Assembly (NCBI GenBank): GCA_018056375.1
Contig: JAGPFQ010000001.1
Location: forward strand, 167,995 to 231,994
Length of the DNA: 64,000 bases
Reading direction: 5' to 3'
Source of the DNA: Candidatus Dojkabacteria bacterium
Lineage (GTDB): Bacteria > Patescibacteriota > Dojkabacteria > SC72
A model generated the notes under the pieces. The model made no database searches. It saw only the letters and a list, made by a program, of their open reading frames with translations, and was not told where the DNA came from. Position numbers and translations under genes: made by a program. Of this stretch, positions 2,657 to 46,695 are shown one piece after another; position 1 is the stretch's first letter; every line of letters starts with the position of its first letter.

Positions 2657-2724
2657 ACAAGCGGTGATTTTATCACTAAATTTGAATCATGGAAAGGTGC
2701 TTGTAGAAGGTATATATGGGGGTA

Positions 2725-2753
2725 TTGAAAATCTTATAGGGTTTTGGTATAAT
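2725..2753 (+). promoter_or_regulatory. sigma70-like promoter for the giant surface-protein gene
   Basis: TTGAAA, 17-nt spacer, TGgTATAAT; about 70 nt upstream of the ATG at 2824. Confidence 0.45.
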
Positions 2754-2823
2754 CCGAATATGTAGAGCATTGTTTCTACTTAAGTTATGATAACTTTATT
2801 TATTAATTTTTAATTACAAATTA

Positions 2824-8646: not shown

Positions 8647-9289
8647 CAAAAAGGTTCTAGTAGGAGTAATATTACTCCTGCTAGGCCTCACTGCCCTTCT
8701 TTTGACATACAGGCCAGTAATCAAGGCTAAGATATCGCAATATAGATTTTCAGAACCATCAACTAGCAATGTAGTTCTCTCTAAGGATGGAGATATTACT
8801 AAAGAGATTAAACCAGAAACAAAAGAAGTAATCCTAGATTCAAAGTTTGGTTTGTATATTCCAAAGATTAAATCAAATGCATCAGTAGTTGCTAATGTAA
8901 GTCCATACAAAGAAGCTGAATATATTAAAGCATTAGAAACAGGTATTGCACATGCAAAAGGTACAGTCACACCAGACAAGAAAGGTAATGTATTTCTCTT
9001 TGCACACTCAGCAGTAAATTTCTATGAAAGAAACAAATATGATGTATACTTCTATCTCCTTCATGAATTAAAGAAAGATGATGAAATATTTGTAAGTTAT
9101 AACGGTATTATCTACAAATACAGAGTTCAAGAGGTAAAGATTGTTAACAGAGATGATGTTAAATATCTAAGTAAGTACTCTGATGAGGATACTCTAACCT
9201 TAATGACCTGCTATCCTGCAGGTACAGACTGGAAGAGAACAATAGTTATCGCTTACAGAGACTCTCAAGAACCTATTGTTGAGAAATAA
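8621..9289 (+). CDS. sortase (transpeptidase), membrane-anchored
   Basis: N-terminal TM; active-site His (FLFAHS), TLMTC catalytic Cys motif and downstream Arg; start overlaps the adhesin stop by 26 nt. Confidence 0.8.
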   Translation: MSENKRVINKKVLVGVILLLLGLTALLLTYRPVIKAKISQYRFSEPSTSNVVLSKDGDITKEIKPETKEVILDSKFGLYIPKIKSNASVVANVSPYKEAEYIKALETGIAHAKGTVTPDKKGNVFLFAHSAVNFYERNKYDVYFYLLHELKKDDEIFVSYNGIIYKYRVQEVKIVNRDDVKYLSKYSDEDTLTLMTCYPAGTDWKRTIVIAYRDSQEPIVEK

Positions 9290-19521: not shown

Positions 19522-20760
19522 ATGGATGTTCATAATCTCACAATAGGTGAAGTTGCTAATAGATTAAATGTATCTGAGGATACGATTCGTAGGTGGGCAA
19601 AAAAAGGTCTTATTAAATCAACTCGTGGAAAGAATAATTATAGATTGTTTAATCTTAAGGAAATCGAAAGAGTTAAGAAACGTACACAGGGGGATTCGTG
19701 CCATAGAGGGTTTAAGGTTTTAAAATCAAAGAAAAACTATAATTACACAGTTATAGATCTATTCTCAGGTGCTGGTGGAACATCTCTTGGATTGGAAAAT
19801 GCAGGTTTGCAACATAAGCTTTTAGTAGAATTTGATAAATATGCTGTAGAGACATTAAGAACAAATAGACCTAATTGGAATGTTGAGTTTAAAGATATAA
19901 AAGAAGTTGATTTCAGGGGTACGTCTGCAGATATTGTAGAAGGGGGTTTTCCTTGTCAAGCATTTAGTTATGCTGGTAAAAAATTAGGTTTCTCTGATGT
20001 TAGAGGTACATTGTTTTTTGAGTTTGCAAGGTGTGTTTCTGAAGTTAGACCTAAGATTGCAATTGCAGAGAATGTTAAAGGTTTATTAAGGCATGATAAA
20101 GGAAGAACTTTACAGATAATGGTTTCTGTTTTAGAGGAGTTAGGGTATAGAGTTGAATATAAAGTATTAAGAGCACAATATTATGATGTCGCTCAAAAAA
20201 GGGAGAGATTAATCATTATTGGAGTGCGTGATGATTTAAAAATACCAATAATTTTTCCTAAGGAGAATGACTATTTAATTACCTTAAGGGATGCTTTAGA
20301 AGATGTGCCACACTCGGAAGGACAGACATATCCTGAGAAGAAGAGAAAGATTATGGAAATGATTCCTGAAGGTGGTTATTGGAGAGAGTTACCTGAGAAG
20401 TATCAAAAGGAATATATGGGTGCTAGTTATTATCATACAGGAGGTCGTACAGGTATGGCTAGAAGATTATCTTGGGATGAACCTTCTTTAACATTAACTA
20501 CAAGTCCTGCACAAAAACAAACAGAACGTTGTCATCCTTCTGAAACCAGACCTCTTACTGTGAGAGAGTATGCTAGGATACAAAGTTTTCCAGATGATTG
20601 GATGTTTGCAGGGTCAGTAAGTCAACAGTATAAACAGATAGGAAATGCAGTCCCTGTAAATCTAGGTTTTCATATTGGTACTGCATTAATCAAAATGCTT
20701 GAAAATGCCTCTTTAGGTTGTACAACAAACAAAGTTGAAGGTCAGCTAAGTTATTTATAA
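19522..20760 (+). CDS. DNA (cytosine-5)-methyltransferase with N-terminal MerR/excisionase-like HTH
   Basis: motif I FSGAGG, motif IV GFPCQ, motif VI ENV, motif X QIGNAVPV; C-terminal similarity to GGCC-type methyltransferases (recalled from memory). Confidence 0.9.
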   Translation: MDVHNLTIGEVANRLNVSEDTIRRWAKKGLIKSTRGKNNYRLFNLKEIERVKKRTQGDSCHRGFKVLKSKKNYNYTVIDLFSGAGGTSLGLENAGLQHKLLVEFDKYAVETLRTNRPNWNVEFKDIKEVDFRGTSADIVEGGFPCQAFSYAGKKLGFSDVRGTLFFEFARCVSEVRPKIAIAENVKGLLRHDKGRTLQIMVSVLEELGYRVEYKVLRAQYYDVAQKRERLIIIGVRDDLKIPIIFPKENDYLITLRDALEDVPHSEGQTYPEKKRKIMEMIPEGGYWRELPEKYQKEYMGASYYHTGGRTGMARRLSWDEPSLTLTTSPAQKQTERCHPSETRPLTVREYARIQSFPDDWMFAGSVSQQYKQIGNAVPVNLGFHIGTALIKMLENASLGCTTNKVEGQLSYL

Positions 20761-20772
20761 CTTAAAAGTATC

Positions 20773-22242
20773 CTACTGCAACTTCTCAAACTTCCCATCT
20801 TCTAATAGTCTGTAATATCCTGATCCCTCAGGTCCATATAGACTCCATGAGTTAATAGGAACTTGATATGTTTGACCTGTACTTGGTGAAGATAATGTCT
20901 CATACCCTCTCATACCCTCTACCCATTTCTCATTAGATTCAGTTATTAAACCTTTATGATAAGCACTACTTTGAACAGTAAAAGGAGCTCTTCGATTCTC
21001 AGTAGGTTCAACTATTGGTAGTAATGTATTCTTCCTTATAATACTACTATCAACAAAGTCAAAACTGTCTTGCATCTTCTGTAAAGTATCTTTTACATTA
21101 TCCCAATTCTCAGCTAATGTCATCTGTCCAAATCCATAAGCTGATGCATATTTAGTTCCACTAGCAGAGTATGGAGGTTGATATATTCCCACAGTTATTT
21201 TACCTAGAATAGGTATACCTTGCATCTTAGCACTAAGGTTAAACTCCTGTACACTATACCCTAATACTTGAGAAGGTAATACTGTTTCATCTGTTAATGT
21301 AAGATCTGTTATTTCCTTAACCTCTGCGAACGTCTCTTCTACCCAAAATTTAGGTGTATAGTCACCTTTTAATTCTGTTGTGTACATGTAGCTAAGTAAT
21401 GTTCTTTGATCAGGTCCTACTAATTGAATAAAACCTTCTTTCTCTTCAGAGATGGTATAACCGGTAGCCTTATCTAACTGGAAGTATTTTCCTTTGTATT
21501 TCTTAAAACCTTCAGGAGTTTCTTCCTTTACTTCTTCTTTGGGTTTTGCTGTTAAAATATCATCTGTAAGTACTTTTGTTCTTGCAAAACACCCTGAAAT
21601 CTCCTTTAAGAAACCTTCTCTCTCTTCAAATATCTCTGCAGGTGCCCAATATACTTTAAATGTAACAAAATCTTTTGTTTTAGAAACATGCATTTTTCCT
21701 TTAATATCATACTCGTTGATTTGAGCTATGACATCTGCATAAATCTCATCCTCTAACTCTTCTATCTTTTGAATCTCCTGCATCTCAAATGTCCCACCTC
21801 CTTCTTCAGTAGTTTCTTTTAAGATTTTAGAGAATGTGTTTAGGAAATCCTCTTTTGTTAATTCTGGCTGTGATTTAGCAGTATATATGAGTACTGCAGT
21901 AGTATTTGTCTCATCTTCCATTATTGAGACAGTACCGCTTTCAACCGCATAGTACCATCCATTTGGAACACCAATACTAAAGGCATTCTCAGGATACTCT
22001 ATCCTCTTAAACGAACAACTAGGGTTGTCGTTTTCTACAGTCTCAGCGTAATACTCATCTCTACCAATACCTAAATCCTTTAGAATTGTTTCTAAAGATC
22101 CTGTTAGATAGAGGGCACCTAAGAGTGCGACTACGAGGATTATTATGGTTGAAATAATTATAGATTTCTTGTGTTTTGTAAAGAAATCTGTAGACTGGGC
22201 TTCTTTCATATCGCTTAATGATATAAAATTATGTCTTTTCAA
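20773..22242 (-). CDS. hypothetical membrane-anchored extracellular protein
   Basis: 489 aa, single N-terminal TM, no recognisable domain. Confidence 0.45.
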   Translation of the reverse strand: MKRHNFISLSDMKEAQSTDFFTKHKKSIIISTIIILVVALLGALYLTGSLETILKDLGIGRDEYYAETVENDNPSCSFKRIEYPENAFSIGVPNGWYYAVESGTVSIMEDETNTTAVLIYTAKSQPELTKEDFLNTFSKILKETTEEGGGTFEMQEIQKIEELEDEIYADVIAQINEYDIKGKMHVSKTKDFVTFKVYWAPAEIFEEREGFLKEISGCFARTKVLTDDILTAKPKEEVKEETPEGFKKYKGKYFQLDKATGYTISEEKEGFIQLVGPDQRTLLSYMYTTELKGDYTPKFWVEETFAEVKEITDLTLTDETVLPSQVLGYSVQEFNLSAKMQGIPILGKITVGIYQPPYSASGTKYASAYGFGQMTLAENWDNVKDTLQKMQDSFDFVDSSIIRKNTLLPIVEPTENRRAPFTVQSSAYHKGLITESNEKWVEGMRGYETLSSPSTGQTYQVPINSWSLYGPEGSGYYRLLEDGKFEKLQ

Positions 22243-29881: not shown

Positions 29882-30751
29882 TTAGTTACAATATTTTAAT
29901 AATCCAGTTATATCATATTCCCTAACTTCATCAACAAGTTCTGATTGTATCCCTTTTCGACTTTGTAGTCTATCGTAGAAGGTAGGAATGGTGTTATCCT
30001 GATGTATTACACCTGTATATATTTTACCTGTTTGGGACATATCTTTTGCTAATTTTAGAGCATGATCAATTGATGTTTTATCATACTCTTGTAGAGTTTC
30101 CAGCTTAACAATGTGCTCATTGAACCATTGTGGAGTGCACTCTTTATTGTATGTTGGACAGCTTTGAGCAATCTGTATAACACTACATCCTTTATGCTCT
30201 ATTCCCTCCTTTATTATCTCTGTTAGTTGTTGTGGGTCACCACTGTATGCTTTTGCAAAGAAAGAAGGTTTTAGAGAGAGTATGAAGTGATTGATATCTA
30301 AATCTCTTTCTGGTTTTCCTTCTGGTAGTGCATACATCTTTTTTCCTTGTTTTGTTGTTACTGTTGCTTGTCCAGTAGTTAGTGCAAAGTTTTGATTGTC
30401 ATGAATTAGAATGGTCATATCATAGTTGGATTTGATAGCATTGATTAAGTGATCTATACCCTCGTGGAAACATGCTCCATCTCCTTGGTCTGCAATGACA
30501 GTATATTTTCTGTTTGCTAGATGTGCTCCTGTAGCTAGTGCAACTGCTCTTCCATGTAATCCTTTGAATGCATATGTATTTACTGTATCTGCACCATTTC
30601 CATTACATCCAATATCAAAAGAGATGAATGCTTCTGATGGTGAGATATTTAATTCAGCTAGAGCTTTTTTAAGTGCTACATGGATAGCGAAGTTTCCACA
30701 TCCTGGGCACCATGTAGGTTTTCTTTCTGTGTTGTATATATTGATATCCAT
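29882..30751 (-). CDS. 2-oxoacid:ferredoxin oxidoreductase beta subunit (TPP-binding)
   Basis: CPGCG N-terminal motif, GDG TPP-binding motif. Confidence 0.85.
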   Translation of the reverse strand: MDINIYNTERKPTWCPGCGNFAIHVALKKALAELNISPSEAFISFDIGCNGNGADTVNTYAFKGLHGRAVALATGAHLANRKYTVIADQGDGACFHEGIDHLINAIKSNYDMTILIHDNQNFALTTGQATVTTKQGKKMYALPEGKPERDLDINHFILSLKPSFFAKAYSGDPQQLTEIIKEGIEHKGCSVIQIAQSCPTYNKECTPQWFNEHIVKLETLQEYDKTSIDHALKLAKDMSQTGKIYTGVIHQDNTIPTFYDRLQSRKGIQSELVDEVREYDITGLLKYCN

Positions 30752-30753
30752 AC

Positions 30754-32475
30754 CTATACCTCCTTTTTTTCTAAATAGTTAAGTATGTCTTCGATGAAGA
30801 ATGGTCTTCCATCGAATTTTAGTAGTTTTTCATTGAACTTGTATCCTGTTTCTTCTGTTAGTAGCTTTCCTAGTTGTCCTGTTTCATTGTTTTCAATTAG
30901 TATTAATCTTTTACCTTGTTCTATTAATTCTTTTAGTCTTTCTGTTTTAACTGGGTATATGTATTCATAGTGGAGATATCCAATATCTTCATTTGAGAGG
31001 GAGGTGTTTATAATATCAAGAACGGGGTTTTTAGTATTCCCTGAGCCTACTAATATAGTTGAGGCATCTAGGCTACCAAAGTATTCTGGTTCTGGTATTT
31101 CTGCTTTTAGTTTTTCTAACTTCTTTGTTCTTTTTTTACTCATTTCCCATACTTTTTGAGCATTTTCTGTTGAGTAACCTTCTTCTGTATGTTCATCACT
31201 TGTGTGTAGGTATGGTTTTTGATCTTTTGATGGTATCCATCTTGGTGATATTCCATCTGTAGTTAGTTGGTATCTCTTTTCTCCATGTTGTAGTCCTCTT
31301 TCAATTCTTTCATTAGGTGGTAGAGCATCCAGAGAGAAGAGTCCTTCTGCTATTTGTTTTTCTGTTAGTACAATTACTGGTAGTTGGTATTTGTCTGCTA
31401 TATTGAAAGCTTTTTGTATGAGTGTGAAAGCACTTTTTGCATCTGCAATCTGTATTACACATCTTGGGAAGTCTCCGTGTGCTATCTTTGTTGCTGCTGT
31501 TATATCTCCACTACCTGTCCATGTTGGAACTCCTGTACCTGACCCTATTCTCTGTGCTACAACTATGACTAGTGGTGTTTCAGACATTCCTGAACATGAT
31601 ATTGTCTCACACATGAGGTCAAATCCTCCTCCTGATGTGGCTGTCATAGCTCTTGTTCCCATGTACATAGCTCCCATTGTCATTTGTATTGCTGTTATCT
31701 CGTTCTCTGCTTGTTTTACCAATATTTTAGTATCATTGGCACTTTCTCCTAGGAATTTAAATATGGATGTGGCTGGTGTCATAGGGTATCCAAAGAATGC
31801 TCTCATACCTCCTGCTAGTGCTCCTAGACTGATTGCATCGTTTCCTGTCATAGTCATTTTTCTGTTATTAGATGTTTCTAACTCTTCTATATCAATATTT
31901 TCACTAAGGGTTGGTTCATAGAGAGGTGAGTTATACCCTGCTTGTAGACAGGCTCTCTCTGCATCCATATCTATATTTTTACCTTCAAACATCTCTTCCA
32001 CTGCTTCGTTTAGTATTTCTAAGTTCTGTTTTAATATTTTCCATATGAAGCCTGCTAGTACAGCATTTGCCATGATTGGAGGAGCATTGTTTTCTTTTGC
32101 TATCTCTTCTGAGTCTATGAGGATTACTTTAATGTTATTCTGTTTGATATATTCTTCTTCACTTGGAGTTAGTTCTAACTCTTTGCCATCATATATTACT
32201 ATTCCATTAGGTAATACATCTGTGATGTATTCTTCAAGGGATCTTTCAGACATACAGCATAGTATGTTGGTTTTAGAAGAAGAACTATTTATACTACTGT
32301 TTGATATATCTATTTGGTAGTTTGCAAAACCTCCTTTTATTAAGGATGGGTATTCTCGGTTGGAGAAAGTATAGTAGCCTGCTCTGTTTAGAGATTTGGT
32401 TAGGATAGTGCCAACACTATTTATTCCTTGTCCGCTTTCACCACCGAATTTTACTATTATTCTTTTTAAATACAT
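30754..32475 (-). CDS. 2-oxoacid:ferredoxin oxidoreductase alpha subunit with fused N-terminal gamma domain
   Basis: gamma-domain GGxGQG motif at the N-terminus, followed by the pyrimidine-binding alpha domain. Confidence 0.85.
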   Translation of the reverse strand: MYLKRIIVKFGGESGQGINSVGTILTKSLNRAGYYTFSNREYPSLIKGGFANYQIDISNSSINSSSSKTNILCCMSERSLEEYITDVLPNGIVIYDGKELELTPSEEEYIKQNNIKVILIDSEEIAKENNAPPIMANAVLAGFIWKILKQNLEILNEAVEEMFEGKNIDMDAERACLQAGYNSPLYEPTLSENIDIEELETSNNRKMTMTGNDAISLGALAGGMRAFFGYPMTPATSIFKFLGESANDTKILVKQAENEITAIQMTMGAMYMGTRAMTATSGGGFDLMCETISCSGMSETPLVIVVAQRIGSGTGVPTWTGSGDITAATKIAHGDFPRCVIQIADAKSAFTLIQKAFNIADKYQLPVIVLTEKQIAEGLFSLDALPPNERIERGLQHGEKRYQLTTDGISPRWIPSKDQKPYLHTSDEHTEEGYSTENAQKVWEMSKKRTKKLEKLKAEIPEPEYFGSLDASTILVGSGNTKNPVLDIINTSLSNEDIGYLHYEYIYPVKTERLKELIEQGKRLILIENNETGQLGKLLTEETGYKFNEKLLKFDGRPFFIEDILNYLEKKEV

Positions 32476-32492
32476 GGGTAGTTTTTAATATA

Positions 32493-33476
32493 TTATTGTA
32501 CACCAGTACCAATGTTACCATTTCCATTGAAGAAGACATAGTTGAATATGGAATGGGTGTATCTCTCTGCAGGGATTATTACTTCTTTTGCTCTATATGT
32601 TCCTCCACATGTTGCAGAGGCTTGGAGTTTGTATACATTAAAGTTTGCTGTACAACCACCAGGACCTAAAGGTGGTATAGGAGTGATGGTAAAGGTAAAA
32701 TTGACTTCTTGATTTATGGCTGTTAACCCTATTACTAAGATATCATTATCTAAATCTATTGGTAGTCCATCATTTGGGAATAGAGTCCAATTATGAGTAA
32801 AGTTAGGATTAAGACCAAATCGGTAGCTAATAGTGTCTTCGTAATTATATTCCCTAATACTACCACCTTCTTCATATATTTTGTTTACAACCAATCCGGC
32901 TTCGTTACTTGGATTATGAACAAATATTCCAAGTCTACAATTGGAAAAGTTCCTATCTTCTTTTAGAAATGAAAATGTTTGTCCTGGTTTTATTGTTATT
33001 ACATCACCGGGAGCTATTTGTGTTAAAGAAAGTGTATATTTGTTATCTAAACCTTCTATTAATGGACAGATATCTAGATTCTGTAAATTTAATGGATGTC
33101 CTAGTTGTGCAGTTAACTCTGTAATGTCTCTATCTCCACTCTCATAGCCAGCTTCTATACCCATTTGAGCATTAGTTTGAAAGACTAATTGACCATACTC
33201 CTCCTCAGGAGGATTTATTCCTTGACCTGCTTGGTAATATGTTTCTACATATGTTTTACCAAGCATACCTTTCTCTAACCATTGTTCTAATGTACTTAGT
33301 AAAAGATTGTCTAGTATCATATCTGATACTTGATATGCTTCTGCTGAGTTTCTTTCTTGTATAGCCATACTCTTTGATTTCTGTGATCTAGAGAATACAG
33401 CAAAACCAATCATCGAGGATATGATTAGTATTACCATGATTATTGCTAGTGCTTGTGCTTTGTAGTATTTCTTCAT
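32493..33476 (-). CDS. hypothetical secreted/membrane-anchored protein (last gene of the secreted-protein operon)
   Basis: 327 aa, N-terminal TM, no recognisable domain. Confidence 0.45.
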   Translation of the reverse strand: MKKYYKAQALAIIMVILIISSMIGFAVFSRSQKSKSMAIQERNSAEAYQVSDMILDNLLLSTLEQWLEKGMLGKTYVETYYQAGQGINPPEEEYGQLVFQTNAQMGIEAGYESGDRDITELTAQLGHPLNLQNLDICPLIEGLDNKYTLSLTQIAPGDVITIKPGQTFSFLKEDRNFSNCRLGIFVHNPSNEAGLVVNKIYEEGGSIREYNYEDTISYRFGLNPNFTHNWTLFPNDGLPIDLDNDILVIGLTAINQEVNFTFTITPIPPLGPGGCTANFNVYKLQASATCGGTYRAKEVIIPAERYTHSIFNYVFFNGNGNIGTGVQ

Positions 33477-33485
33477 ATTTATATT

Positions 33486-36400
33486 TTACAACGGTTTAAA
33501 TCCAACTTCTTTCTTGTATACAGATCTATCTACATCAAAGAAGTTTTCTGCAAATTTAGTATATTTAGGATGGTAGTTAATGATTAAAGCTGGTCTTAGA
33601 GGATTATCTGCACCTAGGTTTCTTTGTAGAACGAATGAAGGAGATTCTCCTCCAATACCAAAGGCAATTAGTCCTCCTACTAGTAATACTTGGTCATGGT
33701 TTTCACTTACAGCTGCATCTTGAGCTATCGTTATTCTCTCTTTAGCAAGTAGGAATGCATCTATTCTGTCTGTACCACCAGTAGCATGTCCATCGTTTAC
33801 AATGATGTTCTTTTCTGAGAATACAAATATTGCATCATTGTTACTAGTTGCTTGGAGAGCTCCTGTTATTGTTATGTTTCCTTGGGAATATATTAAAATT
33901 TTACCAGTGTATTTAAAACTTCCTATTGTTAAATCTTTGTCAGATTTAATATAGCATCCCTTATCGGAAGAGCAGTGCCAATGAGTTGCACTTGGGATTA
34001 TTTCATCTGACAGCTTTTTGTCCATAGATGAGTTTGCTTCTCTCTTTAGTGCTTCATAGAGGTTTACTTTGTTTTGCTCATTTGTATCTTCTACTCCTTT
34101 TGCTACTGCTGGGTTTCTATGCTGTTCTGTACCTCCAAACATGAGGACTTCCCTTATTGGGTCTATACCATTTGCTTTTGTTGTTAATAGTTCTGAACCT
34201 AAGTTGTAAAAGTTAATATTAGGTTCTAGTTTTTTAGTTTCGTACTTAACTGTACCTTCTGAGTAAAATATTCCTCCTTTGGTAGACATCCATCTGTTGT
34301 AATCAAAAGGATCTGGGTCATCTGGGAATGGAGGTTCATCTGGATCTGGGTTTTGGTCTTGTCTACCAGTTCCACCAAAGTTACATGCTCTGTCATAGAG
34401 GGTTACATCGAACTTCAATGTACCAGAGGCTGTGTCACCTGTGTTAACAATCATATTTGTGGAATTACCATTGGAGTTTGTAGGATGATACCAACCACTT
34501 GTAATTACGATATTACCTTGTGCATCATAGCCGATATTACCCATCTCATCTGCACTGAGATTACCTGGTATTACTGCTTTTACTGGAATCGGAAGTGTTC
34601 TTGTTACCTCCTTTTTAGATGAAGAGCTAACATTTACAACTGTATGAACAATTTGAGAGTTAGGATGTCCTTTATCTGTACTGGTCCATTTGAGTTGTAG
34701 GTTTTTTTGATCTTCTGTTGCAAGTCTATCAAGTGTTATTGCTGTTAATCTAGGATTTTTAAAATCAAAGTTCCATATCTGTCCTGTATTTTTAACAGAC
34801 CTAATATCTGCAAAGTATCCATGTGGTTGGGTTGGGAAGAGTGTTAGATTATCCATCATACCTGTCCATATTTGGTATCTACCAGACAATGGTATGTTCT
34901 TTTCAAATTCGATTTTAATTGTCATATCTGTTGTATCTGTAGGATTTTGTGCATTCTTTACACTTTCCAGTGTTATTGTAGCTATTTTTGTTCTTTTACC
35001 ATTATTGTTTACATATATGTATGGTTGTTGAATATTTGAGTTCTGTGGTACATCTCTACCCCAACCTTCAAAACCATTTCCATTATGTGATTTATATATG
35101 CCACCCATGGTATGAACCATTATCCCTATCTTATTTGGGTCTGATAATGTTGCACCTGGTCCTACGCCTGTGAGTGTGTTTCGTTCATTATCGATTGTAC
35201 TTCCTTCTTTAACTAACCAGAGTACTGCAGCATTTATTCTGTGGTTTGCATCATCTTGTTCTGCTGCAAGATTAGTATTTATATCTCTTCCCTTTATTGT
35301 AAATGTGAGAATTCTGTTAGCTTCATTACCAGTGTATCTTGCTTCTGGTGTACATCCTTTAGCAGTGTTACCGGTTGTATTGCCTGTTACAGTTGTAGAG
35401 ATTACAGTAGGTGGTGTGTTTACTACGAAGTTGACTGATTTTGTAGTACCTTTGACCCAATTATCATCACATTTGTTTAGTGTTTCAAAAAAGGAAGAGA
35501 GTGTACCTTGATTTCCAGGGTTAAGTGATGGTGCTGTAGTTGGGATGTTGATAAAAGAGTTGAAGGGATTATCAACATTTAAGGTTCTTAGAATACCATT
35601 TAGTGTTACTCTTAAACCTCTTGCAGTGCTAGGTATACCAGGATTGTTTGTTTCTGTCCTTATCTCTGATGTTTTGTATGGATATCGAATTACTGTTCTT
35701 CTTGTAGAAGAGAGTGGTTGGTATGTCGTCCATTCGAAATTATTAATACCTAATCTTTCATATATTTTAATACTTGTAACATCAGCAGGAGATATGTTTG
35801 TTTCTGGTTTATAACAACTTTTGGTATTACAAATATTCATACCTCCACAACCGTTTTCTTGTATACAGTATGCATCTTGTCCTTTACATAGAGGACCTCC
35901 TTGTTCTGTCATTACATATTGATTATATTCTGTGGGGTCAAATGGTTGATTAGCTTCTTTGCAGTTATCCTCTACAACACATTTATTTGGAGGACATTGG
36001 GGTGTACAACCACCTCCTCCACCTCCTCCACCATGGCAACATTGTCCACTAAACAGTGTTCTTCCGGAATATTGATCAGGAAAGCCTCCTGGAATACAAT
36101 TACAATCATAATATGAAGGGATCGTTGGTGGACAACTGCCTGAATCACAAACCCCAACATCAAAACAGGGAGCAGTAGATCCTCGTTTGCAACACAAAGA
36201 TTCGTTATAGCAATAACGACCAGATGGTTTATCTCGACCTTGACATCTTTTATTAACACAATCTGTTATGCATCGAGGATCCTTTGTACATGTTTCTGGG
36301 GTTTCTTTTCTACATACACCGTTTGATACATCTTCATATGTCCAGCCTATTACAGGGGGTGGTTCTTGAGAGCACTCAAAAATAACTCCTTGAGGTGTTT

Positions 36401-36671
36401 CCCTATATCCTTCTGATCGACATTGTATTGAGACAGTTTCATTTACTTTTTTTTCATGTCCTCGCCCATCACACAGATAATAACTTCCAGGAAACTTAGG
36501 AGCAAAATCACCATAAGGACCATAACAGAGAGCAGGTATTACTCCTGTCTCATGATAACAATCATATGTTACATATGCAAATGATTGTTTTGATTTCAAA
36601 AACAGAGTAAATACTACTAAAACAAGTAAAAGACTTAAAAACAGTTTTTTAGTTGTATTTTGGACAGTCAT
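33486..36671 (-). CDS. large secreted protein with extremely Cys-rich N-terminal module and Gly8 tract
   Basis: signal peptide; about 36 Cys in the first ~260 mature residues; CHGGGGGGGGC; long beta-rich C-terminal region. Confidence 0.6.
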   Translation of the reverse strand: MTVQNTTKKLFLSLLLVLVVFTLFLKSKQSFAYVTYDCYHETGVIPALCYGPYGDFAPKFPGSYYLCDGRGHEKKVNETVSIQCRSEGYRETPQGVIFECSQEPPPVIGWTYEDVSNGVCRKETPETCTKDPRCITDCVNKRCQGRDKPSGRYCYNESLCCKRGSTAPCFDVGVCDSGSCPPTIPSYYDCNCIPGGFPDQYSGRTLFSGQCCHGGGGGGGGCTPQCPPNKCVVEDNCKEANQPFDPTEYNQYVMTEQGGPLCKGQDAYCIQENGCGGMNICNTKSCYKPETNISPADVTSIKIYERLGINNFEWTTYQPLSSTRRTVIRYPYKTSEIRTETNNPGIPSTARGLRVTLNGILRTLNVDNPFNSFINIPTTAPSLNPGNQGTLSSFFETLNKCDDNWVKGTTKSVNFVVNTPPTVISTTVTGNTTGNTAKGCTPEARYTGNEANRILTFTIKGRDINTNLAAEQDDANHRINAAVLWLVKEGSTIDNERNTLTGVGPGATLSDPNKIGIMVHTMGGIYKSHNGNGFEGWGRDVPQNSNIQQPYIYVNNNGKRTKIATITLESVKNAQNPTDTTDMTIKIEFEKNIPLSGRYQIWTGMMDNLTLFPTQPHGYFADIRSVKNTGQIWNFDFKNPRLTAITLDRLATEDQKNLQLKWTSTDKGHPNSQIVHTVVNVSSSSKKEVTRTLPIPVKAVIPGNLSADEMGNIGYDAQGNIVITSGWYHPTNSNGNSTNMIVNTGDTASGTLKFDVTLYDRACNFGGTGRQDQNPDPDEPPFPDDPDPFDYNRWMSTKGGIFYSEGTVKYETKKLEPNINFYNLGSELLTTKANGIDPIREVLMFGGTEQHRNPAVAKGVEDTNEQNKVNLYEALKREANSSMDKKLSDEIIPSATHWHCSSDKGCYIKSDKDLTIGSFKYTGKILIYSQGNITITGALQATSNNDAIFVFSEKNIIVNDGHATGGTDRIDAFLLAKERITIAQDAAVSENHDQVLLVGGLIAFGIGGESPSFVLQRNLGADNPLRPALIINYHPKYTKFAENFFDVDRSVYKKEVGFKPL

Positions 36672-36677
36672 AGTGCT

Positions 36678-38507
36678 TTATTTATAAAAATCTGCTTTAC
36701 TCGCTGGAGTATAAATAGCATTAAGTACTTGTTTTAATTTCTCAAAACCTTCAGGTGATTTAGGGCTGTAAAACACACAGGATGTAGCATCTTCAGATAA
36801 TGGTTCTTCTTCTCCCTTCTCCCAGTCTAAGTGTTTTTGATATACCTCCTCTATTCTTTTAAGACTTGCTTCTAATTCTCCTTCTTCTAGTTCACTTTTA
36901 ATATAGTAGGTTACATATCCAACTCTTCCAGTATATCCATCTTTAATTCCTGTCATATCTCCTATTATGTAATACTCTGTTTCTCCATTCTCTCCTTCTT
37001 GGAAAGTTAAGACAACATCATTCTCTGGTGCATTACCACCATCTATAGTAACTCCACATGTATGCTCATCTGAAAGAGTTACACCCAAACCTATTGGGGC
37101 TCCATGCACCCTAATCTTCTCACCTACTTTAGAAGGTGTACGAGTAGCTATATTGTTTTCATTAATTAAGAGATGTGTTAAAGTTGCCACGAGCGTATCG
37201 AGAGTCCCATTATTACCTCTTGGCCAGTTAAGTAATCTCTTAAATTCCTCTGTACTTATAATCTTTGCAACCTCTACTATTGAATACTCTTCCCCTGCTT
37301 TAAATGGTCCATTTTCCTTTTGATATTCTAAAAGGTTTCTAAAAAAGAGAGAGAGAACTAATTGTTCAGTAGTACTACCTTCTGCAAAGAGATTTCCAAC
37401 AGCAATTTCTTCACTTTCAGAACTTTTGGTAAAATTGATAGTTTCTCCTTCCTCTGTTTCTGCAGAGAGTACTACCACACCTACAGCAACATTCATAGCA
37501 ACTCCAGAGTGATTCCTAAGAGTCCCTACGGTGACACTCTCACCATTCTCACTTGTAATCTTTCTAGTTTCTAATAGTTCAAACTTTGTTTTTTCTGGAA
37601 TATCAAGGATTGTGACATGGTTCCAATAAGACTCTTTTACTTTATCTTCTCCAAATTCTCCCAATGAGAATAAAGGTAATTCATATAAGACAGTCCTGTA
37701 TCCTTCTTTAACTTCTACAATATAACCAGGTTCATGTTTTTCTATGTTGCTTGCTTTAAGTTCTCCTTCCCATTGCATAATGTCTAACATAGAATAATCA
37801 AACTCTTGTGGATCTATCTCTGGTATAGGTGTAGGTGTTGGGTCTAATGTCATAGTAGGTGTAGGTTCTAATGTTGGTGTTGGTTCTATCGTTTTTGTTG
37901 GTACCTCTTGATTAGGAATAGTTGTGTCTTCTATCTCCACATCGTTAGGAATAGAAGTGGAAGAAGATATAGGTATGTGTTCTTTAGGTTGTTCTACCTC
38001 TTTTACTGTCTGACAAGCAGGTGCAGATAATATGAAAGCTAAAGGTGCAGTAGTACGGAATATAGTCTCTGCTACTTCCTTTGGTGTTACATTGTATAAG
38101 GAATTAAGTACTTTATCTCTAACCCTTTTAAAAGTATCATCTTTTTCTCCTTTTACTGACTTCTGAGATTCTTGTAAAGCAAATTGAATGTAACTTCCAA
38201 CTGCATTACGAAAATCATCTGTCTTTTTTTCATCCCACTCTTCCATACCATCTACTAGGTCTTGATAGTCTTTCCTCAATTTCTCTCCATTATCTTCTTC
38301 ATATTTGTCATCTTGCATAAAACCAGAATTGGCAAGATGTTTTTTTAACTCAGCTAATTCCCATGTAGACATTTCACTTTTACCACTTTGTCCAAATGAT
38401 ATGACATCATCTATTTCAGAATCTATCAGCCAATCATCTATATGTTCTGTGTTGTTATAATTATTCGTGGCAGTTTGGTCGAACTTGTTTTTTTCTATAT
38501 CTCCCAT
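36678..38507 (-). CDS. hypothetical protein with acidic N-terminus, Pro/Thr-rich linker and C-terminal domain
   Basis: 609 aa; EPTPTLEPTPTMTLDPTPTP linker; no recognisable domain. Confidence 0.45.
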   Translation of the reverse strand: MGDIEKNKFDQTATNNYNNTEHIDDWLIDSEIDDVISFGQSGKSEMSTWELAELKKHLANSGFMQDDKYEEDNGEKLRKDYQDLVDGMEEWDEKKTDDFRNAVGSYIQFALQESQKSVKGEKDDTFKRVRDKVLNSLYNVTPKEVAETIFRTTAPLAFILSAPACQTVKEVEQPKEHIPISSSTSIPNDVEIEDTTIPNQEVPTKTIEPTPTLEPTPTMTLDPTPTPIPEIDPQEFDYSMLDIMQWEGELKASNIEKHEPGYIVEVKEGYRTVLYELPLFSLGEFGEDKVKESYWNHVTILDIPEKTKFELLETRKITSENGESVTVGTLRNHSGVAMNVAVGVVVLSAETEEGETINFTKSSESEEIAVGNLFAEGSTTEQLVLSLFFRNLLEYQKENGPFKAGEEYSIVEVAKIISTEEFKRLLNWPRGNNGTLDTLVATLTHLLINENNIATRTPSKVGEKIRVHGAPIGLGVTLSDEHTCGVTIDGGNAPENDVVLTFQEGENGETEYYIIGDMTGIKDGYTGRVGYVTYYIKSELEEGELEASLKRIEEVYQKHLDWEKGEEEPLSEDATSCVFYSPKSPEGFEKLKQVLNAIYTPASKADFYK

Positions 38508-38528
38508 ATATGTTTGTATAATAATATA

Positions 38529-39578
38529 TTACTTTTCTACTGATATCATATAAAACAATATCGTATTCTGCAAATCTTTTTTATTTGCCCCAGATAGTAT
38601 TTCTTCAATTATTTTATCTTTTGTAGTTGGTTTAAAACTGTTGCTTAAAACTATATCGATATTTCCACATAAACGTGTGAGTAGTATAGGTACTTCTTCT
38701 CGATTACATTCTTTTTTAAGATTTTCAACCAGAGTATCCGATTTATCTGTTAGAAAAAAGAATTGTAATTGATAATTACCACCCACTTTTAGTAAATCTT
38801 TGTTCTCAACGGTTATTGTGGTAAACAAATCCTCTCCTTCTGAGAACTCTATCTGTCTTGAAGGTAAAGTAAAGATAACATCTTTGCCTTCTATTGTAGA
38901 TTTGAAAGTAAGTTCTAAAATATCACCTTTAGTCTCAATGTTCTGTAATTGGTTTGTGAATGTATATATATGTCCAGCTTCTTCAATACCAAAAGTATTT
39001 TCCTTCATGACAACATAGTTGTAATAATCATCGGACGTGGCATTCTCTAGTGATACTACAAACCCTGTTTGGGCAATATCCTTGTTTTTATAAAACTCTT
39101 CATAGTATTCAGTATCGCTAACATTTGCTATTTCTAGACTAGAATATTCAAAAGTAAAGAGTTTACTCTTGCTATATATTATTGAGTATTTTAGAGGTAA
39201 AAACGAATCAACTTCTAACCATTCACCCATCCCTTCCCATTTAACTCTGTTATTACCTTCACATATGTTAAATACAAAAGTTTTGTCCTCTTCTTTTTTT
39301 GGGATAGTAATGAAGTTATAACAATGTGTCATTAACCTTTTATCTAACTCCTGAGGGGGATAAAGAAGTCCTTTACACTTAACCTCTACTGTATCTTTTG
39401 TTTTAACATAATCACAATCATCTAATAGTTCTTCATACTTATCTAATACAAACCATCTACCATACTTAAAACCATTCCTAATTACATCTTTATAAACAAA
39501 TACAAAAACACCTAAGAGTAGTAATAAAAAACTAATGGATAATATAACAATTGTCTTCTTAGAAGCAGTAATCTTCAT
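38529..39578 (-). CDS. hypothetical membrane-anchored protein (first gene of the secreted-protein operon)
   Basis: 349 aa; N-terminal TM. Confidence 0.45.
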   Translation of the reverse strand: MKITASKKTIVILSISFLLLLLGVFVFVYKDVIRNGFKYGRWFVLDKYEELLDDCDYVKTKDTVEVKCKGLLYPPQELDKRLMTHCYNFITIPKKEEDKTFVFNICEGNNRVKWEGMGEWLEVDSFLPLKYSIIYSKSKLFTFEYSSLEIANVSDTEYYEEFYKNKDIAQTGFVVSLENATSDDYYNYVVMKENTFGIEEAGHIYTFTNQLQNIETKGDILELTFKSTIEGKDVIFTLPSRQIEFSEGEDLFTTITVENKDLLKVGGNYQLQFFFLTDKSDTLVENLKKECNREEVPILLTRLCGNIDIVLSNSFKPTTKDKIIEEILSGANKKDLQNTILFYMISVEK

Positions 39579-39592
39579 ATATATAATATATC

Positions 39593-40339
39593 CTACATAG
39601 AACTTAAAACCCTGTCAATATTGTATAGTAAGTCTTTCTTATCCTGTGCATTCTCCATTAACCATTCTAAATACTCTCTATCTGTCTTAACAACATCCTC
39701 AAGGTTATACCCTGCATACTTACCAAATGTAAGTGTACGAATATACTGTGGTTCTTTAGATATAGTCATCATATTCTCTGGTGTAAGTACAGAATTATGT
39801 TGTAAATAATCAAAAAGATTCTTAAGTACAATCACATCACCCATAGCATCATGTGGTAATATTTCAGTATCTTTTTCTTTTTTGTAAAGACCTAAATAAT
39901 ATCTAAGATATTGTAATGAATAGCTCTCAAGGTCTCTCTTGTTCTCATCTTCTAACATATTCCTAGCTACCTTAAGTGTACATATATATTTAGGTATCTC
40001 TATACCTTTCTTCTTAAGTACTTCCATATCAAACTCTACATTATGTGCTACCCATATATATTCCTTACCCAGGTTATTAAGATGTTCTTTTAGTGTAATC
40101 TCTGAGAAAAGAGTCATAGAGGTAGTATCTTGTACCATCCTCTCTTTAAACATAGGTTTGTCTTCTAGAAATTCAGGTGTAATATGGTGTACAGCCATAG
40201 CTCCAAACGATATATCTTGTTCAGGTTTAAAATATTCATTAAACTCCTTACCATCACTAGTTAGAAAAGCTAGTTGAATGATATCTTTACTCTGTACATC
40301 AGTTGTTTCTGTATCAAAAAAAAGAAATTTCTGTTCCAT
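39593..40339 (-). CDS. DEDDh 3'-5' exonuclease (DnaQ-like) with C-terminal extension
   Basis: Exo I motif FFDTETTD; later H/D motifs. Confidence 0.7.
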   Translation of the reverse strand: MEQKFLFFDTETTDVQSKDIIQLAFLTSDGKEFNEYFKPEQDISFGAMAVHHITPEFLEDKPMFKERMVQDTTSMTLFSEITLKEHLNNLGKEYIWVAHNVEFDMEVLKKKGIEIPKYICTLKVARNMLEDENKRDLESYSLQYLRYYLGLYKKEKDTEILPHDAMGDVIVLKNLFDYLQHNSVLTPENMMTISKEPQYIRTLTFGKYAGYNLEDVVKTDREYLEWLMENAQDKKDLLYNIDRVLSSM

Positions 40340-42090: not shown

Positions 42091-42597
42091 CTAGAATCTA
42101 GGTTTTTCTTCACAATCTTTTATTATCTCAAGAAGACTTTTCCAATATTTAGAATTAACAAATTTTTCTACTTCTTTATTTGCAATCCTATTTATCTCTT
42201 TCTTTCCTACATTCTTTTTACCAATTACCTTCTTCATTTCATCTTCTAGACAATCCTCATGCCAGAATATATGTATATTAGGAAATTGTTTTTCTATCTT
42301 CTTCTTCTCTTTTTCCCAATTTTTAGGGAAATCCTCTTTTAGTTTATCTAAGTCAATGAAACAAATAACTATGTCAAAGTCTCTGTTAGAAGATGTTTGA
42401 TAGCATTTTTGTAGTATTGTTTCAGGACAACCACCTGATGCATTGTCTAAAAGAAAAATCCATTTTGATGTATGATACTTAAACTTCTTGAGAGAAGAGA
42501 GATTTTTTATGAAGGTTTTATCTTTCCTTCCTTCACCAAAGAGCAGTCCTGTATATGGATGCCCTGTACTAGATTTTGATGTTTGGGAATGCTCCAT
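42091..42597 (-). CDS. small TOPRIM-like protein (DUF4276-like), partner of the upstream ATPase
   Basis: GEG glutamate followed about 60 aa later by DLD (TOPRIM E...DxD pattern); 29-nt overlap with the ATPase gene. Confidence 0.5.
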   Translation of the reverse strand: MEHSQTSKSSTGHPYTGLLFGEGRKDKTFIKNLSSLKKFKYHTSKWIFLLDNASGGCPETILQKCYQTSSNRDFDIVICFIDLDKLKEDFPKNWEKEKKKIEKQFPNIHIFWHEDCLEDEMKKVIGKKNVGKKEINRIANKEVEKFVNSKYWKSLLEIIKDCEEKPRF

Positions 42598-43753
42598 ATT
42601 TTCCAGCTAGATATTTATTTAAAAAATTATCATCACTTCTTACACCATCTATTTTGTTTAATCTTTTAACAATGCTTTCTCCATCATTGTTCTTTTCTGT
42701 TAGATAGATTTGGTGCATATCTAGCTTGTTCATACTAGCAAGTGAGAGTGAGGAGAAGATTAGTTGTGCATGTCCATCAGCATTTTCATCAATGAAATAT
42801 GTAATTATCTTGTTTAGAGCCTCCGGGTGCAATCCTAGTTCTATTTCATCTATGATTGCGACTCCATTGTATTTGAGGGCTTTAAGTATCTTTGTCATTA
42901 AGAAGAAAATACTCTGTGTTCCTCTTGATTCGTAGAGGAAAGGAAGCCTTTTATCTCCGTGAGAGGTTGTATGTATACCTGATACCATATAGTCGGTAAA
43001 TGCACTTCCTTTTTTTACTTCTTTTTCTATTTCTATACTAGTTAACCCCAAGTCAAAATTCTTCATAACATCAAGAGTCTTCTCTTTTATCTCTGTGTCT
43101 CTTTCATATGATTCAAAGGCATCTATTTGGTAAGGAATGATATTGTGTTGTCCAATCTCATTTATATTAGTGTAGAAATTATTGAAATATTCTATGAGTG
43201 TATTGATTACTTCTATATCATAGAGAGATTTTAGGAATGGGATAAAGGAGATATCTTCTCTAATTCTTGGCAATATTGATGGTTTAAGATTTTTAAAATA
43301 CCTCTTGTTTAATTCTAATATATTATCTTTCTCCCTTTTGAAGAGAGTAACAGGCTGTGCTCCTTTTTTAATCTCTTTTACTATTAATATTTCTTTGTTT
43401 ACACTGTTTTCTTTTAATACCAATTTGTATGTAAATATGTTTTCTTTAATCTCAAAAACTATTTCAATATTGGTAGGTTTCTTGTTATTGAAGAAATTAC
43501 TGTATGGAATGAATATATTTTCTACATTACCATTTCTATTTAGATTTGTGAGAAAGTATCCAAGAAATCCAAAAAGTCTGATAACATTAGTTTTACCAGA
43601 AGCATTCGCACCTATGAAAGACGCTACTTTAGTTATCTGGTCTCCTTTGGGAGAGTTAAAGTAATCGTAGGAATCTTTTTTGTTTGCAGTAAAATCAATT
43701 TCTTGTCTCTCTTTAAAGGAGTAGAAATTGTCAAATGTTATACTTCTAATCAT
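42569..43753 (-). CDS. AAA_21/ABC-type ATPase of the OLD/AbiL/PARIS-AriA class
   Basis: Walker A GANASGKT, Q-loop/signature region, Walker B AIIDEIELGLHP, H-loop. Confidence 0.75.
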   Translation of the reverse strand: MIRSITFDNFYSFKERQEIDFTANKKDSYDYFNSPKGDQITKVASFIGANASGKTNVIRLFGFLGYFLTNLNRNGNVENIFIPYSNFFNNKKPTNIEIVFEIKENIFTYKLVLKENSVNKEILIVKEIKKGAQPVTLFKREKDNILELNKRYFKNLKPSILPRIREDISFIPFLKSLYDIEVINTLIEYFNNFYTNINEIGQHNIIPYQIDAFESYERDTEIKEKTLDVMKNFDLGLTSIEIEKEVKKGSAFTDYMVSGIHTTSHGDKRLPFLYESRGTQSIFFLMTKILKALKYNGVAIIDEIELGLHPEALNKIITYFIDENADGHAQLIFSSLSLASMNKLDMHQIYLTEKNNDGESIVKRLNKIDGVRSDDNFLNKYLAGKYGAFPNIKI

Positions 43754-45717: not shown

Positions 45718-46695
45718 ATGGTAAGTAAAGCATCTTTAAGTATAGAGAAGTTTAAACATATACTTTACTCTTGTTATGACTCCTCTACTGCATATGAAGC
45801 AACTAAAAAGATTTGGAGTAAAGAGAATAGATTTCTTGGTCAATGTGTAGTAACAGCACTTTTAGTTCAAGAATATTTTGGTGGAGATATTAAGAGAGGA
45901 TATATACCAGAGATGAATATGTCTCACTATTGGAATTATATTGATAGTAAGAAGGTTGTTTTAACAATAGAACAGATGGGTGATATATCAGATGTTAAGA
46001 TAAAGGATATAACTACTAAATCTAGAAATAACCTGCTAGAAAATGATTCAATTTCTACTAGATACTTCTTACTTAAGGAAAGAGTAGAGAAAAGGATAAA
46101 GGAGTGGGAAAGTTTAGAAAAGAAGATGTCTTTGTGTAGGAAGTGTAATATGCCATCATATTTTGAACATGATAGTGTACACTTTGGTAGTAATTGTGAT
46201 TTACTGTTTGTAGGAGAAGCTCCAGCAAAGAATGGTTGGAGGGTTACAGGTAGAGCTTGGTACAACCCTTCTGGTAATTTAGTTCCATCAGGTAAGGTTT
46301 TTGCTAAGTTGTTGGAGATAATAGATATTAGTGAGGTATCGGATATAACATTTTTAGAAGCAGTTCAGTGCTATCCGTTAGAAGGGAAAGTGAGGAGTGA
46401 GCATATAAAGAATTGTCAGCCTTTGTTAAGAGAACAGATATACCTGTTAGATCCATTAGTTATTATTCCTATGGGAGTAAAAGCTACGAAGGCATTATTA
46501 AATTTTACGAACTTTTCAGATGTTGTTGGTAAGTTTTCATCTGTTAGAATAAAAGGTAACGATTATAATGTTTTTCCAATGTATCATCCTTCCCCTATTT
46601 CACCAAAAAGTTTGAAAGATAATATTGTAGTATTTGAGAATCTTAAGAGGTATCTGTTAGAGATAGAGGATGAGAAGAGAAATGTAGTACTTTAA
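45718..46695 (+). CDS. uracil-DNA glycosylase superfamily (family 4-like) domain fused to an unknown ~150-aa N-terminal domain
   Basis: motif A GEAPAKNG; motif B HPSPISP; internal Cys cluster. Confidence 0.55.
   Translation: MVSKASLSIEKFKHILYSCYDSSTAYEATKKIWSKENRFLGQCVVTALLVQEYFGGDIKRGYIPEMNMSHYWNYIDSKKVVLTIEQMGDISDVKIKDITTKSRNNLLENDSISTRYFLLKERVEKRIKEWESLEKKMSLCRKCNMPSYFEHDSVHFGSNCDLLFVGEAPAKNGWRVTGRAWYNPSGNLVPSGKVFAKLLEIIDISEVSDITFLEAVQCYPLEGKVRSEHIKNCQPLLREQIYLLDPLVIIPMGVKATKALLNFTNFSDVVGKFSSVRIKGNDYNVFPMYHPSPISPKSLKDNIVVFENLKRYLLEIEDEKRNVVL

Follow-up and report, generated by a model that had tools for sequence, protein, structure and literature searches.

The 64,000-nucleotide (nt) stretch of Candidatus Dojkabacteria DNA analysed here (contig JAGPFQ010000001.1, positions 167,995 to 231,994; the whole stretch is referred to below as the window) carries on its minus strand four consecutive genes, which encode a 1061-amino-acid (aa) protein with a cysteine-rich N-terminal part and proteins of 349, 609 and 327 aa. 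We compared the locus with 27 related loci, representing about 14 distinct lineages or arrangements, and propose with moderate confidence that it is a surface adhesion module in which a modular host-binding adhesin is presented by a pilin-like partner. The four open reading frames (ORFs) were present exactly as a preliminary description of the window had stated:

38529-39578, minus strand, ORF of 349 aa (ORF list)
36678-38507, minus strand, ORF of 609 aa (ORF list)
33486-36671, minus strand, ORF of 1061 aa, putative adhesin (ORF list, 16 close homologues, AlphaFold2 model)
32493-33476, minus strand, ORF of 327 aa, pilin-like partner (ORF list, AlphaFold2 model, alignments)

All four are real genes, since other genomes encode homologues whose protein sequences are conserved. 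As had been reported, none of the products contains a recognisable domain: scans of all four proteins against Pfam, NCBIfam and PHROG gave no significant match, and hidden Markov model profiles of the 1061-aa family, of its C-terminal module and of the 327-aa family returned only noise when compared with the PDB sequences. The N-terminal hydrophobic segments that had been noted in three of the proteins were located by a Kyte-Doolittle scan in the 349-, 1061- and 327-aa proteins, and no hydrophobic segment above the threshold was detected by the same scan in the 609-aa protein.

The 1061-aa protein was modelled with AlphaFold2 (AF2) using 17 sequences (mean predicted local distance difference test score, pLDDT, of 59), and its parts are as follows:

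36576-36671, minus strand, Sec-type signal peptide, aa 1-32, with predicted cleavage after SFA (hydrophobic aa 5-32; AF2 helix 4-28)
35796-36575, minus strand, hypervariable Cys-rich head, aa 33-292, with 29 Cys (Cys statistics, alignment)
34302-35795, minus strand, stalk of tandem immunoglobulin (Ig)/FN3-like beta-sandwich domains, aa 293-790 (AF2, Foldseek)
33489-34301, minus strand, conserved base, aa 791-1061 (alignments; AF2 at low confidence)

The large beta-rich region that had been described behind the Cys-rich part was indeed seen in the model. The stalk was modelled with a pLDDT of 70-94 over approximately aa 290-690, carries an invariant Cys401-Cys440 pair and a YDxACN motif, and also gave an FN3-like hint when profiles were compared with the PDB sequences. 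A Foldseek search of the PDB with the model placed the Ig-like domains of PrgB and the C-terminal domains of antigen I/II at the top, with low template-modelling scores (TM-scores), and all of the matches were generic tandem Ig/FN3 proteins; structure prediction did not yield an ordinary known fold such as that of a beta-helix glycosidase. Because a Sec signal is combined with confidently modelled beta-sandwiches that resemble the stalks of PrgB and antigen I/II, the architecture fits that of an adhesin. Neither an LPXTG motif nor a C-terminal transmembrane (TM) segment is present in the 1061-aa protein, which is therefore not of the sortase-anchored type, and the protein has no class III (prepilin) motif. 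The base contains the motif W-x-TKGG-x-x-S, a helical segment and short-strand solenoid-like repeats, and ends in the invariant tail YHPKY...FF...YKxEVGFKP (YKKEVGFKPL at the terminus of the window protein). Together with the FN3-like domain that precedes it (from window position 34814), the base makes up a module of ~430 aa that is common to the whole family.

The preliminary description had counted about 36 Cys in the first ~260 mature residues of the 1061-aa protein; the actual number is 29 in residues 33-292, and the entire protein contains 34. At 11%, the Cys content of the head is far beyond chance when compared with the 0.89% in 24 other proteins of the window. The CC pairs at residues 160 and 211, CNC at 190 and CHGGGGGGGGC at 212-222 were confirmed, the Gly run lying at window positions 36009-36032. 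Phase variation at this poly-Gly tract was considered and ruled out, since its codons are a mixture of GGT and GGA and the tract is thus not a slippage-prone homopolymer. The head closes with an invariant junction motif, CYxxETN (window 35796-35816). Head sequences cannot be aligned between homologues, though the junction is invariant, and AF2 left the head essentially unmodelled (confidence below 50 for aa 33-290). Cys-rich heads occur throughout the family irrespective of sequence (13-61 Cys, 9-15%), so that what had been presented as an oddity is a family-wide trait of these proteins of the Candidate Phyla Radiation (CPR). In distant family members, the conserved module is preceded on its N-terminal side by CBM60, DUF2341, GH130-like or Gly-rich domains, instead of or besides a Cys-rich head. 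The high Cys content of heads that show no sequence conservation, together with the domains found in these distant members, suggests that the head acts as a binding module. In one homologue (P0009, 1226 aa), an insertion of ~200 residues (columns ~353-548 of alignment A1) repeats the CY..ETN junction along with an extra Cys-rich block, and the head therefore appears to be duplicated.

Protein identities to the 1061-aa protein of the window were computed block by block, and the corresponding DNA was compared by blastn. The block identities for three homologues were:

P0002: head (33-290) 27%; stalk 291-470 96%; remaining blocks 86-100%
P0004: head (33-290) 92%; stalk 291-470 54%; remaining blocks 33-58%
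P0006: head (33-290) 26%; stalk 291-470 96%; 471-690 79%; 691-1061 28-36%

P0004 is encoded by L027, an RNase J-linked locus at a different chromosomal site, which is 91.8% identical in DNA to window positions 35629-37034; the shared stretch consists of the 3' end of the 609-aa gene and the head, and the sole other match is one of ~70% over 34745-35360. The DNA identity of L026 (95.7%) is restricted to window positions 34762-35805. At L001, the ExoX gene is 97.5% identical, and an identity of 81.8% extends over window positions 32000-35772, the stalk, base and 327-like gene staying one alignable block, while nothing can be aligned across 35772-39606, where the head, the 609-aa gene and the 349-aa gene have all been replaced. 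The discordant identities and the ends of the DNA alignments indicate that breakpoints cluster at the head/stalk junction:

35629-35805, strand not applicable, recombination breakpoint zone at the head/stalk junction, ~aa 289-348 (blastn, block identities)

Judged from these sequence comparisons, the head and the genes upstream of it are exchanged jointly, through recombination at the CYxxETN junction, which is invariant. We found no earlier description of such a head-swapping cassette structure in the literature.

Close homologues of the 1061-aa protein numbered only 16. A single sequence, P0017, is found on 69 metagenome contigs. A profile search of 1.84 billion representatives at a threshold of E≤1e-3 extended the large-protein family to at least 246 protein clusters, the distant matches being mostly confined to the last ~430 positions of the profile (~600-1034). 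The motifs of the family are W-x-TKGG, FDxACN and (Y/W)(H/D)P(K/R)Y...FF...K-x-E-V-G-F-K-P. The window protein scored 1618 bits against the family profile A1 and 378 bits against A3, and it has both features by which we delimit the new family, the C-terminal module and a downstream 327-like gene. The 327-aa family has at least 124 members, every one of which is annotated as hypothetical and none of which has a Pfam domain. Named relatives of the large and 327-aa proteins come mostly from Candidatus Dojkabacteria/WS6, and a few come from metagenome-assembled genomes labelled Saccharibacteria, Microgenomates, Minisyncoccales or Patescibacteria. The locus is probably a lineage-specific module of Dojkabacteria/WS6 and close CPR relatives that has so far gone undescribed, and two uncharacterised, CPR-restricted families are defined here for annotation, the ~430-aa C-terminal module (at least 246 clusters) and the 327-like family (at least 124 clusters).

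The four genes had been proposed to form a functional unit. Co-occurrence across the loci showed instead that the conserved unit is a triad without the 609-aa gene. Its members are a small membrane protein with an N-terminal anchor, the large protein, and a 327-like protein that is nearly always encoded next to it on the downstream side. Every locus that was inspected has a gene for an N-terminally TM-anchored protein just upstream of the large gene. A 327-like gene follows the large gene immediately in the window and in L001, L004, L012, L014-L020, L023 and L025, and this pairing is kept although some of the large proteins share no more than 23-26% identity. The 609-aa gene is an accessory one, being found in 3 of the ~14 lineages; its homologues are confined to L012 and L006/L013, and it is absent from L001, L004 and L014-L020. 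No paralogues of the triad genes were found elsewhere in the 64-kb window. One Dojkabacteria-like locus (L024, positions 1241-9176) has two tandem pairs, each encoding a membrane protein of ~400 aa and a large protein of ~920 aa, behind which come ExoX and just one 327-like gene; this arrangement hints at a duplication of the cassette.

The 327-like gene is also almost always located immediately upstream of genes for 2-oxoacid:ferredoxin oxidoreductase (POR), with gaps of 0-40 nt or an overlap (window 29882-33476, L001, L004, L008-L012, L014, L015, L017 and L024), and this adjacency persists in genomes whose large adhesin gene is now at another site. We considered that the 327-aa gene might be a mere resident of the ExoX-POR interval, unrelated to an inserted cassette; this idea was dropped, as the wider survey shows that pairing with the large gene is the rule and the split the exception.

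The spacing within the set of four genes is tight, as the preliminary description had pointed out, but the gaps measure 21, 6 and 9 nt rather than 7-22 nt. Similar packing is seen on either side: 14 nt separate the 349-aa gene from ExoX, which overlaps a polysaccharide deacetylase gene, and 17 nt separate the 327-aa gene from PorA, with gaps of 2 and 8 nt thereafter. Beyond the 327-aa gene lie two POR genes and then an acetyl-CoA synthetase gene, and the four genes are contained in a nine-gene co-directional string that extends from 41148 to 27765. The promoter/terminator scan detected no terminator-like site between these genes, and promoter-like matches were rarer than in shuffled sequence, so the scan was uninformative on operon boundaries. 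As the neighbouring ExoX and POR genes are packed just as tightly, the spacing sets no bounds to an operon of four genes; the discrete operon that had been proposed was not demonstrated, and it represents an arbitrary cut from the nine-gene string.

The AF2 model of the 327-aa protein (26 sequences, mean pLDDT 76) shows a continuous helix of aa 4-58 (window 33303-33467) followed by a beta-sandwich/jelly-roll, which is the lollipop shape of pilins; the globular domain has 4 conserved Cys. Within the family, conservation is highest over the first 60 residues. The helix, which is hydrophobic and amphipathic, bears the motif Y-K-[A/G]-QALAIIMV...IGFSVFSR...QER-S-EA, and Y5, Q8, A9, L10, A11, M14, G24, R30, E41, R42, S44, E46, A47, D52 and L55 are invariant. 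The N-terminus of all members reads K/N/T/E-[A/G]↓QALAIIMVILVISSIIGFSVF (the arrow marks the putative cleavage site), and the -1 residue, before Gln8, is always Ala or Gly. The 327-aa protein thus has a short leader of the pilin type with a small -1 residue, followed by a hydrophobic helix, but its +5 position is occupied by Ile and not by the Glu of pilins. Glu at +5 is lacking in GspK, as expected of a subunit that caps the pilus tip, and the Ile is equally compatible with a tip-capping subunit or with a protein that is not a pilin. When the family was compared with known pilins and pseudopilins, 10 of the 26 members matched ComGG_2 (NCBIfam, NF041014) in register, with a best E of 0.001 and 14 bits against a cut-off of 40, and one member matched PilX_N (PF14341; E 0.21); N_methyl (PF07963) gave no match at E≤1 for the 327-aa protein. 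Alignment with hhalign placed K-A↓Q-A-L-A-I-I-M-V opposite R-G↓F-T-L-L-E-I-M-V of Escherichia coli GspG (P 0.009); the comparison with a GspG/H/I/J profile gave a P of 0.0014 and a probability of 18% over 58 columns, and those with GspM, GspC and GspK gave P values of 0.14-0.65.

The 349-aa protein is bitopic, with an N-terminal TM anchor at ~aa 9-31 (within window 39474-39572), a juxtamembrane motif, DKYxELLxxC...C, and a fast-diverging ectodomain with 6 Cys. Among the 349-like upstream proteins, the first ~70 residues are weakly conserved (DKYxELLxxC) and the remainder is divergent; at L001 the gene has been replaced along with the head of the large protein. The 609-aa protein starts with an acidic N-terminal extension, followed by a weakly hydrophobic segment that resembles a lipobox and ends at Cys165 (window 38013-38051); behind this come a Pro/Thr-rich linker (window 37821-37922) and a globular domain of ~380 aa, which is conserved. 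In its homologues, the same Pro/Thr-rich linker comes after a lipobox-like signal (LITAYG↓C, LLANA↓C). Relative to them, the window ORF differs within its first 165 residues (window 38013-38507): it is longer by an acidic N-terminal extension of ~100 residues, the Cys of the ancestral lipobox has been lost (C to V), and directly behind that position a new hydrophobic segment that runs to Cys165 has been inserted. The assigned start codon of the 609-aa protein is tentative, and so is the way in which it is attached to the membrane.

The earlier suggestion of a surface or attachment apparatus in a CPR bacterium finds support, though of an indirect kind, in the Sec signal, the adhesin-like Ig stalk, the recombining head and the carbohydrate-binding modules (CBMs) of distant members. 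The comparisons show that the genes are conserved, how their domains are laid out, that the large gene is mosaic and that known domains are absent; adhesion, binding of the base by the 327-aa protein and a connection with a pilus are inferences. We propose that the 1061-aa protein is exported by Sec and that its disulfide-rich hypervariable head is the receptor-binding part, carried by a rigid stalk of Ig-like domains with the conserved C-terminal base below. The 327-aa protein would hold the base of the adhesin at the cell surface, in the favoured variant as a tip-type pseudopilin, lacking E5, in a type IV pilus, after the manner of PilY1 and the minor pilins, and otherwise as a membrane stalk. 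The 349-aa membrane protein, which co-varies with the head, may help to fold, mask or deploy it, and the lipoprotein-like 609-aa protein would be a dispensable, lineage-specific accessory. Strains that swap heads and upstream genes at the CYxxETN junction would thereby alter their binding specificity. In its most specific form, this proposal holds that the locus encodes an unrecognised CPR type IV pilus tip adhesin, in which the 327-aa protein, as an E5-less cap pseudopilin, carries an adhesin analogous to PilY1 but structurally unrelated to it through a new ~430-aa docking module, and the head and its cognate membrane protein constitute a swappable host-specificity cassette; we put this version forward tentatively and judge it, taken as a whole, rather unlikely.

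The C-terminal part of PilY1 docks on minor pilins. The tip complex of PilY1 and minor pilins (type IVa pili of Pseudomonas and Myxococcus; PMC7541494) resembles the locus in that a large (~1000 aa), Sec-secreted, non-pilin adhesin with a variable N-terminal part and a conserved C-terminal part is encoded beside a pilin-like gene, and the absence of Glu at +5 of the 327-aa partner recalls the E5-less cap pseudopilins GspK and ComGG. However, the 1061-aa protein has no match in sequence or fold to a beta-propeller or vWA domain: PilY1/PilC (PF05567) gave no Pfam match at E≤1, the AF2 model contains no propeller but Ig-like sandwiches and, at the C-terminus, a solenoid-like part, and PilY1 was not among the Foldseek matches. 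The locus also differs from the PilY1 and pseudopilin systems in having a single pilin-like gene and no pilus genes nearby, and the 327-aa protein differs from pseudopilins in that its putative cleavage site is A/G↓Q and not G↓F, with no N_methyl motif.

Two minor pilins of the Saccharibacteria strain TM7x, PilX1 (jelly-roll) and PilX2 (propeller), lack a PilD signal and have been proposed to be glycan-binding tip adhesins (PMC11623550). As described, they resemble the 327-aa protein as CPR lollipop proteins that are not predicted PilD substrates; their genes, however, are situated in pilus loci, whereas here the partner is a separate 1061-aa protein and the locus has no pilus genes. CPR Peribacteria encode large, Cys-rich, strain-variable extracellular proteins with signal peptides, for which a role in attachment was proposed; these average 1655 aa, contain ~7% Cys over the whole protein and are encoded in a 14-gene cluster (PMC4736985). 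The likeness to the 1061-aa protein, again by description, lies in the large size, the signal peptide, the very high Cys content and the variability between strains. Unlike them, the 1061-aa protein has its Cys confined to a ~260-aa head on an Ig stalk, and it has a conserved C-terminal module and a pilin-like partner. With Gram-positive adhesins (antigen I/II, PrgB, SpaA-type pilins) it shares a tandem Ig-like stalk and a distal binding region, but not an LPXTG signal, isopeptide-domain families or sequence similarity. Type IV pili and the disulfide-forming MdbA/VKOR machinery are over-represented in CPR genomes (PMC6744442), and the literature supports the adhesion module at the level of plausibility.

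Several observations weigh against an adhesin presented by a pilin-like partner. One lineage splits the large gene (L006/L013, L026, L027), which there adjoins RNase J, from the 327-like gene (L008-L010), which stands alone between ExoX and POR, and at L024 the two are separated by the ExoX gene; core-genome synteny of the 327-like gene with POR could explain part of its adjacency to the large gene. Type IV pilus machinery genes were absent from the window and from all 27 related loci in family scans and Pfam annotations, and canonical GFTLIE-type pilins were not found in the window or L001-L025 by a motif scan (G[FM..][TS]L.E). Every similarity to pilins lies below the family threshold, E. 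coli GspK itself did not align with the 327-aa protein, and a Foldseek search of the PDB with the 327-aa model returned no pilin fold but weak jelly-roll, capsid, nucleoplasmin and lectin matches. Several minor pilins are as a rule required to build the complex at a pilus tip, and the locus has one pilin-like gene. The binding of the base to the 327-aa protein is our proposal, and since the base and head are poorly modelled (pLDDT below 50), there is room for an enzymatic or other function.

Much of this evidence would fit an envelope or coat complex unconnected with pili, in which the 327- and 349-aa proteins are ordinary signal anchors that tether the large protein as a layer, spike or fibre and the head varies under exposure to phages or grazers rather than through host binding. 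The lack of nearby pilus genes, the sub-threshold level of all pilin similarity, the position of the locus in a conserved core-genome neighbourhood beside the POR and acetyl-CoA synthetase genes, and the seemingly wide occurrence of the triad in the lineage (124 clusters of 327-like and 246 of large proteins) all agree with a coat. Yet a passive anchor would by no means need the degree of conservation seen in the N-terminal helix of the 327-aa family, this helix aligns in register with pseudopilin N-termini, the carbohydrate-binding modules that distant members have in place of the head suggest that a ligand is bound, and S-layer proteins are usually Cys-poor; we therefore regard a coat as possible but doubtful. 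It is improbable that the large protein is a secreted enzyme or effector that acts on the host cell wall, with a catalytic C-terminal module and a variable head for targeting. Distant members with a GH130-like segment and CBM60, a faint GH130 signal in L023, the conserved polar residues D760, N764, D968, R1017 and K1059 (those from D968 on lying in the base, aa 791-1061) and a base whose fold is unresolved in the AF2 model are consistent with such an enzyme, but the base matched no hydrolase, peptidase or toxin family in Pfam, NCBIfam, PHROGs or the PDB sequences, H992 is not conserved in distant members, and the obligate pilin-like neighbour would be left unexplained.

The mosaic swapping of heads is reminiscent of tail-fibre evolution, and Foldseek matches to viral models included minor tail and FN3-containing proteins, as would be anticipated if the locus were a prophage-derived cassette for a tail fibre or receptor-binding protein. 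The viral TM-scores of 0.06-0.12, however, reflect generic FN3/Ig domains, no PHROG match was better than E 0.02, and the neighbours are housekeeping genes in synteny conserved across genomes, with no phage genes among them, so that this origin is largely refuted and very improbable. The preliminary description had termed the Cys-rich part a eukaryote-like module, which would point to eukaryotic mimicry or to a gene acquired from a eukaryote. Nothing speaks for this except the density of Cys and the spacing of the CC/CxC pairs; the Pfam scan at E≤1 detected neither EGF nor any other Cys-rich family, eukaryotic ones included, and gave just two noise matches (DUF6843 and HTH_Tnp_IS1), every homologue comes from CPR bacteria, and Cys-rich extracellular proteins, including the similar Peribacteria proteins, were already known in CPR bacteria (PMC4736985). 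Given that the heads of close strains differ entirely and yet are always Cys-rich, Cys richness is a trait of composition and not a specific domain, and a eukaryotic derivation is essentially excluded.

To our knowledge, host recognition and attachment by ultrasmall CPR/Patescibacteria are largely obscure outside a few cultivated Saccharibacteria, and we know of no host for Dojkabacteria. The combination of a conserved scaffold (stalk, base and pilin-like partner) with a head that is exchanged between strains, even between divergent loci, makes the adhesion module a concrete candidate for a determinant of host specificity; if the pilus-tip version of the proposal is correct, the locus would offer a direct genetic handle on host range in Dojkabacteria.

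Elsewhere the window carries other genes that are hallmarks of CPR genomes, namely NrdD, POR, an ADP-forming acetyl-CoA synthetase, and a sortase beside a protein with SpaA repeats. The latter protein (1940 aa; window 2824-9289, plus strand, a region that ends with the sortase gene) has at least 5 SpaA/prealbumin-like repeats together with DUF11 and DUF7507, and represents a separate sortase-dependent surface fibre or adhesin. An AAA_21/AbiEii-like ATPase of 394 aa adjoins a 168-aa protein to which no function is assigned (window 42091-43753, minus strand); the pair is present in the window and L001 and missing from the corresponding region of L004, L008 and L011, and constitutes a small variable island, possibly a defence system. 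At window positions 19522-22242, a C5 cytosine DNA methyltransferase fused to an N-terminal MerR-type helix-turn-helix lies beside a convergent gene for a domainless 489-aa protein, with which it may form a restriction-modification pair. A 325-aa fusion of YunG and uracil-DNA glycosylase is encoded at 45718-46695 on the plus strand and is conserved in L001.

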